Positions 2,042-61,882 of a stretch of DNA of 64,000 nucleotides are shown here, piece after piece. Both the position numbers and the translations under genes were made by a program. The notes under the pieces were generated by a model, which did not search any database, was not told the origin of the DNA, and saw only the letters and a list, made by a program, of their open reading frames with translations. Position 1 is the first letter of the stretch. Each line of letters starts with the position of its first letter. Origin of the DNA: Eledone cirrhosa (Eukaryota); the NCBI GenBank assembly GCA_964016885.1, contig OZ024743.1, positions 362,576,001-362,640,000 on the forward strand, written 5' to 3'.

Positions 2042-2230
2042 TAGTATGAACAATGTTTCATACACTTAACATCGATGTGCGACCATTGGTTTCGGGGCCC
2101 AGTTATGGCCGCGTGCCCGATGAAGGGCTAGTTTGAAAGTGCCTCCTCAAATATACTGTGGTGGCCATAACTGGACTCCGAAACCAAGGGTCGTAATAGA
2201 TGTTTAGTTTGTGAAACATTATTTATACTA
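2042..2230 (+). repeat. Imperfect inverted repeat containing a degenerate type I hammerhead motif
   Basis: Arms 2042-2110 and 2163-2230; GTGC-CCGATGA...GAAAC-CAAGG-GTC; the opposite arm reads GAAACCAATGGTC-GCAC, restoring stem I. Confidence 0.6.
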
Positions 2231-2279
2231 TATATAGATATAGGAAAATCTGTTTAAAAAATTGAGTTTTTCTTTGAAA

Positions 2280-2621
2280 TTACTTTTTGAAAAATCTTAC
2301 ATTACTGATACGTCTTTCTTGAGTGAAATTTTCACTACACCTGGAGAATAGGAAAACATCATGATTGGCCTGAATTCGTCCTCCACATTCCTTTATATGT
2401 TGGCTTTGAGGGATCTTACTCGTGTGAGGATCACCGATTTGTTGACAGTGAGCCTTCATTCGTATTCGGCGTGAACTGCCTGTTTGTCCAATATTATGTT
2501 CGTGACAGCCTTTACACGTTATAATGCTTATTAGATTCTCCAAGCTGCAAGAAAAGTCATTTTTAATTTTAAAAATGAAATTAAATTCGTTTCCCTCTAA
2601 CAGATAGTTGGGCGATTGCAC
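2280..2621 (-). pseudogene. Penelope-like GIY-YIG endonuclease remnant
   Basis: FSCSLENLISIITCKGCHEHNIGQTG..RIRMKAH resembles the PLE GIY-YIG pattern (NxIYxIxCxxCxxxYIGxT...RxxxH). Confidence 0.7.
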
Positions 2622-2719
2622 CTTTTTACCTCAGGTTCTTTAGTAACGGTGTGCAGGTTTAATCAAACACACACACACGCACACACACACACATACACAC
2701 ATATATATATATATACAGA

Positions 2720-3042
2720 AAGGGTAAAAACTCCCTTCGGTCATGAATGACCATGGGATTTGCACCTAAAAAGTTCCCCCCGATTTACAAGTCCGGGCAA
2801 GGTTGTTTGGGGGAGAGCCACCAGTCGCCCATGCATGCCAATCTCCTCTCTCCATGCCACCAATGTTGTCTAAGGGAAAGGTAGAAGCCGATACAACTTG
2901 GCACCAGTGACGTCGCAACCAATTTCTACAGCTGACTGAACTGGAGCAACATGAAATAAATTGTTTTTCTCAAGGGCACAACGCATCACCCGGTCTGAGA
3001 TCCCGATTGCAAGCCCAAAGCTCTAATCACTAAGCCATACGC
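2720..3042 (-). mobile_element. tRNA-headed SINE with CORE-like middle (family S2-related)
   Basis: Minus strand GCGTATGGCTTAGTGATTAGAGC (A box) followed by TGTGCCCTTGAG..ATTTCATGTTGCTCCAG, shared with 26569 and 37146. Confidence 0.65.
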
Positions 3043-3065
3043 AATCTTATAAGGACAAATATATA

Positions 3066-3285
3066 CGAAAGCCGGCTGAAACGTTCATAGGCTGAAAAAT
3101 TCATAAGCTGTCTATAAAGAGTGATGCGGAGCTGTGAAACCTTGCATGCATTAATTTCAACTTTTATAATTGCATTGTCTCTTTCCAGGAACTATGTTGA
3201 AACATAAACCTCATTTGGTCATTCCACTTGAGTATCTTGGTCAGCCTATGAACTTTAAGCCTATGAATGTTTCAGCCGAGCCTTG
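3066..3285. mobile_element. Mariner-type MITE
   Basis: TIRs CGAAAGCCGGCTGAAACGTTCATAGGCT / AGCCTATGAATGTTTCAGCCGAGCCTTG, flanked by TA on both sides. Confidence 0.7.
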
Positions 3286-57699: not shown

Positions 57700-59635
57700 G
57701 GGAGGGAGAGTCTAGCGAAAAATACCTGCCCTCAGCAGATGAAGTGGCATATATGCTGAGCCAGTGTATGAAGGACAAAGCGCCAGGACTGGATGATCTA
57801 CTCTATGAATTCTACTCTTACATGCCAGACATGTTCGCTACAGTTTTGCAGCAGACTGGGAACAACCCCAGTCGTGTAAGCCGGGCGTAATGAAACTATT
57901 AAGAAAGGTCCGAACAAGAGTTCCTTGATAGAAAAACTTCATGCCCTTAACCAAACTGAACACAAAGCTGAAGGTATTGGCAAAGTGGTTGGCCCTTGTC
58001 ATTGGTAGTATTGTCAGAGGTCCACAGATCTGTGTAATCCCTGGCAGATCTATCGATGATAACGTCTGCTTCATAAAATAGATTGTGGAACGGGTGGGAC
58101 GTAACCACGACTTTTGTGGGACACTGCTCAATTTAGATCAGTCAAATGCATTTGACATAGACCATCGCTAACCGTGAGCTATCCCAAGAGCACCAGGTTT
58201 CGGCCCCGTTTTCAGAAGCTGGATCACCACGTTTCATAGCGACAGCTTTTCGATGGTTAAATTGAACGGCCACTAAGAACCTTTCCATATCGAGCGCTCG
58301 ATACGTCATTGATATCCTATCCCGTTTTTATGTATTAGATTTAGAGCTTTTGCTGTGGAGAATGGACATCTTGAGAGGAGTTCGGCTAGAAATTATTTAG
58401 AGGTGAGTCGAGTCTGCGTATGCAGATGACGTCACAGTTATGATGTCAGACACTTCAGATATAGAAGCAGTTGACGCCATACCGGAAGAATACCAGAAGG
58501 TTACTGGAGCCTCTGTTAACCAGGATGAGGCCTGAAACTCACTACGAGGAGAGGTAGGATCATGCCAGCCAGCGGGCTGTCGGACAGTCGGCTGTCAACT
58601 CGGTCAAAGTGCTTGGAGTTTGGTTTGGACCGGACTTCCAGGCAGGCAAGAAAGAAATGGGGACAGAAAAAGCTGTCCTTCAAAGGCCGGACAGAGGGGG
58701 AAAATTCCTACATTGCTTCGGTGGTATACTACCACCTCTTGGTCGTACTATGTCCAAAAAACGCATTACGAGATTGTAATGCATGCCCTTCCACTTTATG
58801 TGGAAGGTATACGTCCCACTGGTCAGAAAATCAATCTGTTACCAGCATAAACTCCATGGTAACATCGGGATGTCATCGCTTTTGTTGCGTCGACAGGCAT
58901 TACAGCTAACGCTAAGCACCGCAACGACGATGTCAACGAAAGCGAAGCGCAACCAATATGGGTGCCATTCGTGTGAATGTCTTCCCGTAGGTTGTCTTCT
59001 TTACTCAGCTACAGTCGTGGGTCAAGCGCAGACAAAGGTTGAGTAGCTGGAATTTAGAGTTCTGCCAGGCGCTCACGGTACTTTACCAGCTGAGCATACC
59101 GATAGGATGTCAGAAAACAACAATTACGTTATATAGAGGTTTTGTGAAAAGTATGAGCGACGATGGCCTAGTAACAGCTCTGGACAGGCTTTTCTGTAGT
59201 ACATTCCAACTGAGGATCATTTCCCAAATCCTCCACATGACGGCATTAAGGCGGAGTACTTTCAGTTCGAGACAAGCTCTAAAGGAATGGAAATGCCAAT
59301 AGCCGGGATTGTCCGAGATGCATACGAGGCAATGAAACCGTCATGCATGTCATCACCCATTGCCTATTCTTTGCAGAATCGTGGGCTTGTGTCGAACAAC
59401 TGCTATCATGTGTAGGAGAGATCCAGTTATCAGCCGAACCTATAGTGAAAACTGAACCGTCACCTTCCTCTCCAGTTAAGCCCTTATAAATGTCTTCAAG
59501 TTACACTTGAAGAGGTACTGTCTTACACTTGAGAAGGAGGTACTGTCTTCTAGTGTGTTTTATGAAAGATGGTTGAGATCATCGAGATTGACTATTATTT
59601 TCTAAGTAGGAAGAAGGAAACTAGGAGAGGGCATT
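57700..59635 (+). mobile_element. Old, degenerate Tx1-clade ORF2 (RT to 3' end)
   Basis: KAPGLDDLLYEFY, LNLDQSNAFD, AYADDVTV, KLSFKGR, colinear with family A and B ORF2. Confidence 0.85.
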
Positions 59636-59659
59636 TCAATAGTTGTTCCAGCTCTTTAC

Positions 59660-59785
59660 ATTCTGGGTTAAAATCCTGCTGAGATCGACTTTGCCTTCCG
59701 ATGTCCATAAAATAAGTACTAGTCAAATATCATCGACTTACCATTGTACGCCAAATTTTCTGGTCTTGTGCCAGAATTAAAAATC
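59660..59785 (+). mobile_element. Diverged S1-like SINE
   Basis: GACTTTGCCTT..ATAAAATAAGTACTAG..TGGTCTTGTGCC. Confidence 0.65.
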
Positions 59786-60626
59786 AGTCTTCCTAGAGAA
59801 ATTTGGCTGCTCTTGATATATTTTCCCAAATGACTAGCTTTGATTTTTCCATACTATTTTCTTATCCTTCAAACTGTAGGCAACAAAATGTTTCTTCTTA
59901 TATTACTGGTATGCTACATGAAAGGCGCTCCGATGTATAGTGCAGCGCAGAACGTAAATGAAAAAGATCCGATAGGATGTCTATCACAATTAATCGTGAT
60001 GCTCCCGTGCCAATTATTCAAACGATTGCTAAGCGAAGCAGCATGGCAATATACAAAAAAGGCTTTCCCTTATTATAAAATAACATATCTCGGATACTAT
60101 TTGAGATTTTATTTTTTCATTGTTTTATTTTATTAATTTCAAGTTTGAAGTTTTTCTGAACATGCTTTACATTTTCTCTTCTAAAACTGTTTCTCTATCT
60201 TGCTTTATATTTTGCTTAATAAAGGTTTATAATCAGGGAAAGAATTTATGTCCACCCAAGACTTTCGTAAGCACATTGAAATATGTTTCGTCATCGAAAT
60301 TTCTTTAATTGCAAAAAAAAAAAAATGTCACACATTAGTCTAATTGATTGTCATTTACAGAACGCGTGATATATTCATTTATTCGCTTGCAATAATGTGA
60401 TATGTTCATGTATTCATTATTATATATGTAAAATGAAAAAAGCAAATTTTACTCATTTGTAATTTGGAAATTCCTCAATTAAAATCAATGAAACTGACTT
60501 CATGAATTCACCAATTCTGACCGTTTTTTTTTTCAAAATTGTAAAACGAAATTGCAGTAGGAATTTATACTTGTTCAAGAGACAAATATAACTTAATCTA
60601 GAGAGAATTGTATCTTATATTAGACT

Positions 60627-60768
60627 CAGGGCCTATGAGGGGGAGTCCAACCGGTATTTTATTCCGGGGTCCAATAGCTAAGAAGGCCCCACAGCAATCA
60701 TCTAACATCTATTTTCGGGCTCCAAAGGGGTCTTGCACCGCTTTGAAAAATTTCACTTGTGGGCCCTG
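60627..60768. mobile_element. hAT-type MITE
   Basis: TIR CAGGGCC/GGCCCTG with 8-bp TSD-like flanks ATTAGACT/CTTAGACC. Confidence 0.6.
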
Positions 60769-61380
60769 CTTAGACCAATCATTTTTACAACTGGTAATAT
60801 TGTCATGCTTAAGCTCCTGATATATTTGATAATTAGGGTGTGATGTGCCATTCTGAGTTTCTGAATGCATCAACATGTTGCATTTTATTTCACTGCTATT
60901 TACAAAAGTGATAAGCTTTCGAGAAACTAATGCTTCGAAAGGCACACATGATTCAGACGACAGCTACAGCTGGGAGTTGTTGCAATTAGATAGATGAGAA
61001 CAGTTATTTTGACTGGTCTTGGAAAGCTTTCTTCTGGTTTTATAGGTATAGAAGCAGCAATGTATTTGGTGTAGACTTTTTATGATATATATGGTCCACG
61101 CTTATTTATAAAGTTTGGAAAAATCCTACCAACATCTAAATTTGGACTATATCGTATATGATCTAAATTATATGTTTGTGTTTAGGTACTGTTCTGTATA
61201 TAATGCATCATATATATGAAATCACTGCCTTTTAATACGTCATTATGTTAAAGGGTTACAGGGTTAAAGGATACCGAGGTATTGTTGTATAATAATATGA
61301 TTTCTAACCTCCCCCAGTACTCCTACACACAAATATACAGGTATGGGTATATATATATATATATATATATATATATATAC

Positions 61381-61882
61381 ACAGAGGTATCCACTGTAAG
61401 TTGTGGGATCTATTCTGTATGAAGAACTCAATGTAATCCATATGTTGAAAATGTTGTAGGTTAAGATAAATCTCAGAAAACAATAAAACATTAAAAGGAA
61501 AACAGAGTCATGATATAAGTTAAAACAATGAAATAAAAAATCAAGTCATTAGAGATATACTTCACTGCTTTACGATCGTTTCTAGATGGTGATAATATAT
61601 TGTATCTATACTCAGCTTTTTATCTATGTAAGTTTACAAACTATCAGATAGAGAGAATATTTACTTACATGCATATCACCAGCTGTTTTCAAAAGCAATC
61701 TTTTGAAAACAGCTGGTGATATGCATGTAAGTAAATATTCTCTCTATCTGATAGTTTGTAAACTTACATAGATAAAACGCTGAGTATAGATACAATATAT
61801 TATCACCATCTAGAAACGATCGTAAAGCAGTGAAGTATATCTCTAATAACTTGATTTTTTATTTCATTGTTTTAACTTATAT
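61381..61882. mobile_element. Asymmetric palindrome of a PLE-like terminal repeat with degenerate hammerhead
   Basis: 61513-61695 mirrors 61700-61882 (loop CAAT); shares GTATGAAGAACTCAATGTA and CTAGAAACGATCGT with the 6.8/13.9-kb element; (TA)n on both sides. Confidence 0.85.

Follow-up and report, generated by a model that had tools for sequence, protein, structure and literature searches.

The window considered here is a stretch of 64,000 nt from Eledone cirrhosa (GCA_964016885.1, OZ024743.1, positions 362,576,001-362,640,000 of the forward strand), in which palindromes were mapped by self-BLAST plus repeat finding. At four sites, referred to as the 2042, 6026, 6777 and 61381 families, two copies lie head-to-head in inverted orientation with arms that diverge by 1.7-16%; at each, one arm is longer outward by a "tail" of 59-134 nt (1981-2039, 6276-6340, 6767-6900 and 61381-61512), and the outer ends adjoin (TA)n, (TG)n or (CA)n. 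In all these respects the sites are as the original prediction had described them: inverted copies, an outward extension of one arm, and ends in (TA)n or TG/TA repeats. The features of the palindromes and of the neighbouring Penelope-like elements (PLEs) are the following:

1981-2039, minus strand: 59-nt 3' tail of an old 2042-family copy, adjoining (TG)n
2040-2111, minus strand: tailed arm of the 2042-family pair, reaching 5' only ~130 nt from the 3' end
2112-2234, plus strand: tail-less arm of the 2042-family pair, finishing in ...TTTATAC, then TATATA
6028-6149, minus strand: tail-less arm of the 6026-family pair; its minimal type I hammerhead motif is intact
6150-6340, plus strand: tailed arm of the 6026-family pair (arm 6150-6275; 65-nt tail 6276-6340, adjoining (TA)n)
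6767-9954, minus strand: tailed arm of the 6777-family PLE copy (tail 6767-6900)
9955-9978, no strand: filler at the head-to-head junction of the 6777-family copy, a short local duplication
9979-14014, plus strand: tail-less arm of the 6777-family PLE copy, finishing in ...TATTTTAT, then (AT)n
16978-17292, plus strand: stub within (TA)n that carries a hammerhead (helix I of 5 bp; core CTGAAGA, starting at 17237)
18316-18350: stub of 35 nt
18391-18502, plus strand: tail-less 3' stub of 112 nt from the PLE family at 18588 ("el18"), with a hammerhead (core 18406, helix I of 8 bp)
18588-21016, minus strand: el18-family PLE body, 5'-truncated, with broken ORFs
21017-21132, minus strand: small el18-family stub
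21133-21531, plus strand: inverted tailed stub of the el18 family, its 3' 297 nt with a hammerhead core at 21332
61381-61696, minus strand: tailed arm of the 61381-family pair (tail 61381-61512), with a hammerhead homologue of degenerate core UUGAAAA
61697-61881, plus strand: tail-less arm of the 61381-family pair, finishing in ...GTTTTAACTTATA, then (TA)n
61951-62114, minus strand: inverted tailed 3' stub of the neighbouring PLE (tail 61951-61989; stub 61990-62114)
62115-64000, plus strand: 5'-truncated PLE with an RT and GIY-YIG ORF (stop-to-stop, 62005-63501)

Regarding the 2042 family, the true extent of the palindrome is 1981-2234, and its tail lies outside the 2042-2230 interval originally given. 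Self-BLAST pairs 2038-2110 with 2163-2234 at 83.6% identity (E 2e-11); the 52-nt inner stretch at the centre is part of the tail-less arm and missing from the tailed arm, and at loci L044, L045, L047, L049 and L056 the tail-less arm likewise has sequence missing from its partner. The tail-less arm of the window copy contains a hammerhead-like motif with the variant core CCGATGA (2117-2123) and GAAA at 2180-2183, and copies of the family terminate in ...CATCTACGGATTTCTAC, followed by (AC)n or (TA)n. As for the 6026 family, the palindrome spans 6025-6275 with 96.4% identity (E 6e-116); the hammerhead of the tail-less arm (core start 6110, H17 6064, helix I of 7 bp, helix II of 11 bp) is the only intact one, the core of the tailed arm being mutated to TTGATGA (6190-6196).

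In the 6777 family, 6901-9954 and 10992-14014 form an inverted pair of 3,058 nt with 98.3% identity. The hammerhead of the tailed arm (core start 7107, H17 6974) has a 10-bp helix I and a 115-nt helix II, that of the tail-less arm has its core at 13808-13814 and H17 at 13941, and a degenerate TA/CA microsatellite lies within the 3' UTR of the tailed arm. The "centre" (9979-10991) is contiguous with the tail-less arm, which reaches ~1 kb further 5' than the tailed one (~4.1 kb vs ~3.1 kb), and arm and centre together give contiguous matches of 4,055 nt to the longer copy L088 and of 4,124 nt to L089. In these relatives a UTR of ~4 kb is followed by an RT and GIY-YIG ORF, in which the RT motifs MGSSDS and YRDD, an FLD motif, a CNCRxxxC linker and a GIY-YIG-like IVYKC...SYIGAT are recognisable by eye. 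The translated ORFs P0001 and P0002 had no Pfam match of their own; the protein search with the 6777-family ORF gave 114 matches at E <=1e-5, the Pfam GIY-YIG threshold was passed by two of the six scanned, and homologues of the ORF occur in cnidarian, echinoderm and mollusc records. As judged from L088 and L089, the 6777-family palindrome is a severely 5'-truncated PLE copy. For this family, the severe PLE truncation that had been predicted is borne out by the continuation of its longer copies into an RT and GIY-YIG ORF; ORF-bearing copies of the 2042, 6026 and 61381 families were not found among the genome copies examined.

The 61381-family palindrome (61513-61882) has 98.1% identity, and its UUGAAAA core is homologous in position to the CUGAAGA of the 6777 family; a tail-less end at 61513 followed by (TA)n also occurs in Logan contigs of runs X1 and X2. 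The stub next to it has loose ends at 61991 and 62114 in independent contigs, and the PLE starting at 62115 extends 170 nt past the window and ends without a tail. Its ORF, the sole Pfam-recognisable PLE ORF in the window, matches RVT_1 (E 6.1e-11), and its GIY-YIG score of 21.6 bits is just under the Pfam cut-off of 22.6.

The element that had been taken as a PLE at 18588-21525 is a composite of stubs and a 5'-truncated, internally deleted body, which is without ~1.1 kb found in its relatives. The body has its tail-less 3' end at 18588 and a hammerhead core starting at 18683; a long (TA)n run separates the stub at 18391-18502 from this oppositely oriented copy, and the 100-nt tail of the inverted stub (21430-21531) adjoins (TA)n. 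The el18 ORFs within the window have no Pfam match, and the PLE nature of the element is visible only through comparison with longer relatives. The stub at 16978-17292 is additional to the sites previously noted.

Hammerheads were sought with a descriptor of helix I (>=5 bp), CUGANGA, a closed helix II, GAAA, a short loop and U-H, which matched six times in the window (-6110, -7107, +13808, +17237, +18406 and +21332); a seventh motif, at -18683, has a helix I of only 4 bp. As a null, sequences were resampled from a first-order Markov model of the dinucleotide transitions of the window, which does not preserve dinucleotide counts exactly; 100 such rounds averaged 0.17 matches, with never more than 2. 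Among the matches listed by Rfam there was no hammerhead, whether at the gathering cut-off or with E relaxed to 10. Canonical cores belong to the elements at 6026, 6777-14014, 16978-17292 and 18391-21531; the 2042 and 61381 families have the non-canonical CCGANGA and UUGAAAA, and the expected hammerhead near the 3' end is not universal. As cargo of the PLE 3' region, the hammerheads have stayed intact in certain families and have decayed in the rest, and neither arm boundary is determined by them.

All four families are abundant, with >1,000 first-look matches each in the 3.0-Gb genome; five own-genome searches gave 1,840, 1,008, 1,420, 1,085 and 2,216 first-look candidates, of which 40 per search were scored, and in the search with 1,008 candidates every one of these 40 was 100% identical (rounded). 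Every palindrome family combines a constant 3' end adjoining a microsatellite with variable 5' truncation, a pattern already published for PLEs (PMC8557442), in agreement with the repeated PLE-type integration at TA microsatellites originally proposed. The 3' end itself has two alternatives, namely the full end with a tail of 37-134 nt or a fixed internal UA-rich site.

The distribution of these ends within pairs was examined with queries devoid of the tail, at the 15-28 best-scoring loci per family out of >1,000. Among 28 loci of the 61381 family there were 15 pairs, with exactly one tail in 14, none in one and two in none; the 13 singles comprised eight tail-less copies ending at position 132, one ending at 30 and four tailed copies. 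The 6026 family (27 loci) had one tail in 13/13 pairs, with nine tailed and five tail-less singles, and el18 (15 loci) had one tail in 4/4 pairs, with three tailed and eight tail-less singles. If tails were independent at the rates of the singles, the chance of such counts, calculated by hand, would be ~7e-5 for the 61381 family and ~4e-5 for the 6026 family. The arms are also unequal at their inner ends: in the one-tailed 61381-family pairs the tail-less arm extends 8-269 nt further 5' in 7/14 (for example 317 vs 48, or 376 vs 151), the tailed arm in 2/14, and the two are equal within 7 nt in 5/14. One pair, L120, has zero overlap, with a tailed arm of 48 nt and a tail-less arm covering 132-317. 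In two palindromes of the window (6777-14014 and the 2042 copy) inner sequence is again unique to the tail-less arm; since the tail is unique to the other, neither arm could have templated all of its partner. Turn-round points cluster at ~318 nt from the 3' end in the 61381 family and at ~195 nt in the 6026 family; in the very young 6777 family they differ (476; 890; 439 vs at least 954; ~3,100 vs 4,100), which indicates that pairs arise anew at insertion.

The reading preferred here, with a probability of about 60%, is that several high-copy PLE families, inserting into (TA)n with 5' truncation, left these palindromes, and that each pair came from twin priming of a single RNA. The two arms were likely copied independently from that RNA, and not by a single DNA strand folding back; the priming scheme itself is inferred from the positions of the ends. 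The endonuclease of the element would cut a (TA)n tract in both strands. The tailed arm would start from a 3'-OH that primes at the true 3' end of the RNA, and the tail-less arm from the other (TA)n 3'-OH, annealed to the UA-rich patch that lies immediately 5' of the tail in the same molecule. Both cDNAs would then extend toward the RNA 5' end and be joined head-to-head by their 3' ends, often at short A/T or GC palindromes (TTTTAAAA, TTTTCAAAA, TGGCCA), giving a palindrome if they overlap and a plain inversion if they do not. Such a process would require the cDNA started at the RNA 3' end to displace its internally primed counterpart along as much as 3 kb, and it would offer no reason for the second primer to avoid the 3' end of a second RNA.

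The fold-back second-strand synthesis originally proposed, in which the 3'-end-primed cDNA turns at a short palindrome, copies itself outward and is caught by the opposite (TA)n end where UA-rich microhomology first occurs, hence never reaching the tail, likewise predicts exactly one tail per pair; the turn-round does fall on short palindromes, TTTTAAAA and TTTTCAAAA among them, and equal reach is seen in 5/14 one-tailed 61381-family pairs and in most 6026-family pairs. However, a copied arm is limited to the content of the first, and extra sequence is present in the tail-less arm of 7/14 61381-family pairs, of 6777-14014 (~1 kb), of the 2042 copy (52 nt) and of L027, while the arms of L120 do not overlap at all; fold-back is already strained by these unequal arms and is unlikely, even if deletions near the palindrome centres after insertion could be another source of the inequality. 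Retrotransposition of an already palindromic master, transcribed as a hairpin RNA whose 5' end is the outer end of the short arm, would suit the recurrence of both centre and outer end (~318 and 132 in the 61381 family, ~195 and 65 in the 6026 family), and the rare shorter inverted pieces L105, L127 and L036 resemble 5' truncation of such a hairpin. This route predicts a shortened tail-less arm and a complete tailed one, but the opposite is observed: the tail-less arm of the 61381 family is nearly fixed and the tailed arm varies from 48 to 321. Against it are also the centre sequences that differ among copies, the turn-round points from 439 to ~4,100 in the near-identical 6777 family and the common tail-less single copies, and it is slightly less probable than fold-back, although the clustered turn-round in the 61381 and 6026 families could reflect a master copy of this kind, or a short RNA species, in place of twin priming.

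Least probable is that the arms are separate insertions of different age into the same (TA)n in opposite orientation, or an assembly fold-back artefact. (TA)n tracts are indeed hit repeatedly, as in the succession of 18316-18350, 18391-18502 and 18588 onward with (TA)n between them, and the independent contigs examined do not span the centre at 61697. However, no (TA)n lies between head-to-head arms and the one-tail rule is not expected of independent events (~1e-4 or less, estimated by hand); as for an artefact, the arms differ by 1.7-16%, and chimeric reads would not yield an identical architecture at dozens of loci on many contigs.

Twin priming is known from L1, in which a cDNA started at the RNA 3' end and a second one primed internally from the other DNA strand leave a head-to-head inverted 5' segment. 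The likeness to the proposal made here is one of mechanism and not of membership: the enzyme would be a PLE RT with a GIY-YIG nickase, internal priming would use one fixed UA-rich site in place of variable ones, and the arms mostly share hundreds to thousands of nt, giving a palindrome unlike the L1 inversions.

The published minimal hammerheads, for which pairs of motifs on opposite strands, 100-700 bp from each other, are noted as well, share with the putative hammerheads of the window the CUGANGA...GAAA core, a large helix II and a short helix I. The short palindromic helix III (UAUAUA, CCACUGG, CGAUCG) is also common to both, and implies action as dimers; the 115-nt helix II and 10-bp helix I of the 6777 family and the non-canonical cores of the 2042 and 61381 families are unlike them. 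Metazoan non-LTR retrozymes, on which Cervera and de la Pena reportedly worked in 2020, are a further point of comparison. In Li et al. 2026 (bioRxiv 10.64898/2026.07.22.740005) they are protein-free repeats that contain hammerheads and for which an origin from PLE pLTRs is proposed. The palindromes resemble them in these features; they have no tandem monomer arrays, and in at least one family the repeat is just the 3' end belonging to an autonomous PLE.

In Craig et al. 2021 (PMC8557442), insertions of endonuclease-bearing PLEs have pseudo-LTRs, an inverted 5'-truncated copy, a one-sided tail of 30-40 bp and a bias to (TA)n. The palindromes agree with this description in 5' truncation, head-to-head inverted copy, one-end extension, (TA)n target, terminal-region hammerheads and very high copy number; they differ from it in their tails of 37-134 nt and in long 3' UTRs (~4 kb in the 6777 family) with degenerate microsatellites. 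The Hydra-clade PLEs of the same source, likened here by description, also insert into (TA)n, carry their endonuclease at the C-terminus and have canonical hammerheads, and at <3 kb are shorter than the PLEs found here. The exactly-one-tail rule and the fixed UA-rich tail-less end, which were not found stated in the passages of PMC8557442 consulted, are quantified here. In conclusion, the four palindromes are no new class of element; they are cut-down copies of known ribozyme-carrying PLEs.

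The source genome comprises 3.0 Gb in chromosome-sized contigs, and the window is rich in simple repeats; self-BLAST and a repeat search recovered in it all four inverted pairs that had been predicted, each with an extra outer segment on one arm (families are named by window position):

2038-2110 / 2163-2234, inverted pair of the 2042 family, arms 83.6% identical, outer segment 1981-2039
6025-6275, inverted pair of the 6026 family, arms 96.4% identical, outer segment 6276-6340
6901-9954 / 10992-14014, inverted pair of the 6777 family, arms 98.3% identical over 3,058 nt, outer segment 6767-6900
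61513-61882, inverted pair of the 61381 family, arms 98.1% identical, outer segment 61381-61512

On reading the sequence, every pair adjoined (TA)n, (TG)n or (CA)n, and the arms differed by 1.7-16%, so the pairs are not artefacts of chimeric reads. The original prediction was thus sound for the existence of the pairs, their microsatellite flanks and their one longer arm; as for the first site, the pair stood and its limits did not, since the outer segment extends the element from 2042-2230 to 1981-2234. The same searches found inverted pieces in the region 18391-21531, which holds the el18 family (18588). There, the 308-nt "palindrome" at 18391-18698 (99.4%) consists, unlike the others, of two 3' ends, both lacking the outer segment, that face each other tail-to-tail with a long (TA)n run between them; it is better accounted for by separate hits on the same microsatellite than by a single event. 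Logan contigs over 61000-62300 broke at repeats, and no listed piece bridged the centre at 61697; contigs from separate runs contained other copies that start, directly after (TA)n, at the outer end of the arm that lacks the extra segment.

Regarding the other repeats of the window, a 222-nt foldback at 25721-25942 (87.7%) is not flanked by (TA)n, does not look PLE-like (PLE, Penelope-like element) and is possibly a MITE, and an arm pair of ~32 nt at 25607-25735 encloses a (TA)n run and does not look PLE-like either; Rfam returned microRNA-like noise for both. Partly duplicated LINE-like ORFs occupy 40431-56362 on the plus strand (Exo_endo_phos, RVT_1 and zf-RVT in Pfam), with internal direct repeats by self-BLAST (40758-42639 vs 42911-44781, 93.7%), and a dispersed repeat of ~100-190 nt, also from self-BLAST, has at least five copies of 91-97% identity (607-710, 28148-28251, 36357-36461, 39561-39663, 49376-49478).

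All five families are abundant in their own genome, as estimated from first-look candidates, 40 of which were scored per family.

Family size and identity (first-look candidates in the own genome; identity for the 40 scored)
2042 family: 1,085 candidates, 82-87% identity
6026 family: 1,420 candidates, 97-98% identity
6777 family: 1,008 candidates, identity printed as 100%, a rounded value
el18 family, 3' segment: 2,216 candidates, 93-98% identity
61381 family: 1,840 candidates, 97-98% identity

The summed word depth of Logan contigs over 61396-62300 was ~1e5-3e5 over the stubs vs ~7-12 in the unique flank, a thousands-fold difference. One contig, from a run labelled as another species, covers 61476-61681 with 4 differences, so the 61381-type family is not confined to one species label. 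When copies were aligned, they shared one exact end, beside a microsatellite, and their opposite end stopped at many points, a hallmark of target-primed reverse transcription in which copies are truncated on the 5' side. The end that all copies share is accordingly the 3' end, and in a pair the two arms meet head-to-head, their 3' ends facing outward. Inspection of the flanks of family copies pointed to an insertion bias for (TA)n, and a head-to-head inverted copy was present at 15 of 28 loci (61381 family), 13 of 27 (6026) and 4 of 15 (el18), in addition to the four window sites.

The assignment of the palindromes to PLEs, part of the original prediction, proved right. In the 6777 family, two long copies (loci L088 and L089) run from the 3' end bearing the outer segment through ~4 kb of untranslated sequence, ~2 kb of which is degenerate TA/CA microsatellite, into ORFs on the same strand. 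In the translations of ORFs from 6777-family copies (P0002 and P0001), the reverse transcriptase (RT) motifs MGSSDS and YRDD, an FLD motif, a CNCRxxxC linker and a GIY-YIG-like motif, IVYKC...SYIGAT, were recognized by eye; Pfam gave no match to either of these AT-rich proteins. P0001 had 114 relatives at E up to 1e-5, and two of the six scanned (P0056 and P0082) passed the Pfam cut-off for GIY-YIG. By sequence comparison, the protein of the el18 family is of the same type, and an Atlas look-up, to be taken as a lead only, placed it in clusters with 48% of members bearing GIY-YIG; Pfam found nothing in the window ORFs at 18924-20973, because this copy is 5'-truncated and lacks ~1.1 kb found in its relatives, and nothing in those relatives. 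The sole Pfam-recognizable PLE ORF of the window is at 62005-63501 (RVT_1, E 6.1e-11; GIY-YIG at 21.6 bits, just below the cut-off of 22.6), and its element has the same build: an inverted stub of 164 nt (61951-62114) with a 39-nt outer segment faces a 2.2-kb copy without one, which ends 170 nt past the window, an arrangement consistent with loose ends seen in independent contigs. Searches of the own genome found no ORF-bearing copy of the 6026, 2042 or 61381 families, and the longest 61381 copies (~1.7 kb) had no ORF; PLE ORFs lie near 6026 copies in the opposite orientation and unlinked, so that no autonomous partner was found there. These three families may be non-autonomous, or stubs of elements with long UTRs.

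A published account of PLEs (PMC8557442) describes heavily 5'-truncated insertions with an inverted, likewise 5'-truncated copy at their 5' end, a (TA)n bias and a tail of 30-40 bp, often at one end only. An ORF with RT and GIY-YIG, a constant 3' end, 5' truncation, an inverted copy, a one-sided tail and (TA)n were all found here, as in endonuclease-bearing PLEs; as that account lists the same parts, the insertion signature is already known, and this kind of insertion is already described in print. Non-LTR retrozymes are marked by tandem arrays of hammerhead-bearing monomers and by circular RNA; self-BLAST found no tandem monomer arrays at the four window sites.

As for the hammerhead ribozymes, Rfam searches of the whole window and of two sub-ranges returned microRNA-like hairpin noise and no hammerhead, either at the gathering score or among the matches listed up to E 10. 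The Rfam models miss every minimal ribozyme motif here, clear ones included (6110, 18406), and have little power for minimal forms; for this reason, a descriptor of our own was used (helix I of at least 5 bp, CUGANGA, closed helix II, GAAA, short loop, U-H). It matched the window six times; in 100 resamplings, matches averaged 0.17 and never exceeded 2. The resamplings were drawn from a first-order Markov model of the window's dinucleotide transitions and are not an exact dinucleotide-preserving shuffle. The candidates were:

6110, minus strand, candidate hammerhead in the 6026 pair, with TTGATGA in the opposite arm
7107, minus strand, and 13808, plus strand, one candidate hammerhead in each arm of the 6777 pair (helix I 10 bp, helix II 115 nt, fold z-score -6.0)
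17237, plus strand, candidate hammerhead in a further stub at 16978-17292
18406 and 21332, both plus strand, candidate hammerheads in el18 elements
18683, minus strand, third el18 motif, with helix I of 4 bp, under the limit of the descriptor

All these motifs had a short palindromic helix III (UAUAUA, CCACUGG, CGAUCG), and PLE minimal hammerheads are known for short palindromic helices III and are thought to act as dimers (PMC4209133). Of 39 arms examined in the 6026 family, 29 retained the exact 14-mer around the core. The 61381 and 6777 families can be aligned over the motif, with UUGAAAA in the former vs CUGAAGA in the latter at the core, and the 2042 core reads CCGANGA, or CUGAAUGA in a subgroup. 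Helix I of the 6777 and 61381 families (UUCAUUAUUU/AAAUAAUGAA vs AUUGCUU/AAGCAGU) differs on both sides and still pairs, and the inner helix II likewise changed on both sides with pairing kept, as judged by eye for these two families only. A hammerhead near the 3' end had been expected throughout: the 6026, 6777, el18 and 16978 elements carry one that appears canonical from its sequence, and the expectation failed for 61381 and 2042, which seem to retain a decayed or variant motif. The proposal that the short arm ends at the cleavage site was rejected, as the arm end in the 6026 family is ~40 nt downstream of the site. The stub at 16978-17292 (315 nt, core 17237) lies in (TA)n and is framed by inverted repeats of 245 nt (16734-16978 / 17390-17634, 99%), and a member of its family adjoins a 61381-family copy at another locus of the genome (L003); at a different one (L013), a canonical minimal hammerhead at ~1985 (CTGATGA, with a 6-bp helix I) is found immediately outside the 5' end of a 61381-family copy and probably belongs to a further stub family.

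The asymmetry of the arms followed a rule: each pair carries exactly one tail, the 37-134 nt segment at the outermost 3' end of one arm. Loci were sampled with queries confined to the sequence that both arms share, which kept the tail from biasing their choice.

Tails in pairs and single copies
61381 family: 28 loci; 15 pairs, with one tail in 14, none in 1 and two in 0; 13 singles, 8 tail-less at 132, 1 ending at 30 and 4 tailed
6026 family: 27 loci; 13 pairs, one tail in 13 of 13; singles, 9 tailed and 5 tail-less
el18 family: 15 loci; 4 pairs, one tail in 4 of 4; singles, 3 tailed and 8 tail-less

Were tails allotted independently at the frequency seen in the singles, the chance of such counts would be ~7e-5 (61381) and ~4e-5 (6026) by hand calculation; in the older 2042 family, for which the query contained the tail, 8 of 8 pairs had one. 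Of the 13 pairs of the 6026 family, 12 had their tail-less end at position 65. Throughout the families, the tail-less end lay in a UA-rich patch (...AACUUAUA, ...UAUUUUAU, ...CAUAAC before UAUUAA, ...UAUACUA); the head-to-head junction was often at a short palindrome (TTTTAAAA, TTTTCAAAA, TGGCCA or CAGATATATCTG).

Regarding the nature of the tail, the idea that it is the first 100 nt of a next tandem unit found no support, since the apparent case at 21017-21115 proved to be a stub of its own, with (TA)4 after it, and a solo tail exists at locus L086; the tail block CYGTATGAAGAACTC was also rejected as an antisense hammerhead, its core being wrong and conserved helix II lacking. The solo el18 tail of L086 (reverse complement, 3994-4094) measures ~95 nt, lies between (TA)n and (CA)n, and stops exactly at the boundary between tail and body. 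Unusually stable folds were not seen in the tails (z-scores -0.4 to -2.8). The tails of 6777 (6767-6900) and 61381 (61381-61512), both with their sense on the minus strand, have two conserved blocks in common, UGACUCUGU and GGAWUACAUUGAGUUCUUCAU, which pair with each other in predicted folds of no exceptional stability (z -1.2 and -1.7); judging from these models, the blocks are possibly an enzyme recognition site.

The pairs had been attributed to fold-back second-strand synthesis, in which the second arm copies the first and hence cannot hold what the first lacks. The counts speak against this origin, because the tail-less arm often carries inner sequence absent from the tailed one: in the 61381 family, 7 of the 14 one-tailed pairs had a tail-less arm that extended further in the 5' direction (for example 376 vs 151, 317 vs 125 and 315 vs 219), in 2 of 14 the tailed arm did so, and in 5 of 14 the two were equal within 7 nt. 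At locus L120, the tailed arm spans 48 nt and the other 132-317, so that the arms do not overlap and the arrangement is a plain inversion. Within 6777-14014, L088 and L089 show 9979-14014 to be one contiguous piece of the element, hence the ~1-kb "centre" of the palindrome belongs to the tail-less arm; similarly, the 52-nt centre of the window copy of 2042, with the 5' half of the hammerhead, belongs to the tail-less arm, and five loci of the family are alike. Unequal arms may also stem from later deletion at the palindrome centres, which is a possible cause. A single palindromic master copy could have been the source of the pairs, but the turn-round points vary among near-identical 6777 copies (476, 890, 439 vs at least 954, ~3,100 vs 4,100).

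The simplest reading is separate priming of each arm from RNA. Each arm would be reverse-transcribed independently, one primed at the true 3' end of the RNA and the other at the UA-rich patch, from the second (TA)n end; a second tail would never appear, because a single RNA is proposed to serve each event. Twin priming of L1 works in a similar mode, and the counts favour twin priming here, the individual steps being those we infer; the joint mentions of twin priming and Penelope found in the literature appear to be passing ones. Twin priming leaves unexplained the clustering of turn-round points at ~318 (61381 family) and ~195 (6026 family), which may point to short template RNAs. We put at about one half the probability that PLEs habitually exploit the two 3'-OH ends of a single (TA)n break to prime on the same RNA molecule, at its true 3' end and at a fixed UA-rich patch upstream of a conserved tail, with the tail marking the seat of the enzyme.

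In conclusion, the palindromes are real DNA, troublesome to assemblers and repeat annotators. The mode of PLE integration and the origin of the tandem or inverted copies and of the tail are stated as unsettled in the main recent paper (PMC8557442). The E. cirrhosa genome holds thousands of very young stubs of several families, and their end positions therefore lend themselves to counting, as in a natural experiment; those counted here already argue against simple fold-back and yield a rule testable genome-wide or in vitro. The one-tail rule and the preference for twin priming form a modest mechanistic lead: if true, the inverted copies and one-sided tails of PLEs, long puzzling, would be explained in one step, and counts of "exactly one tail per inverted pair" would directly test how PLEs integrate.
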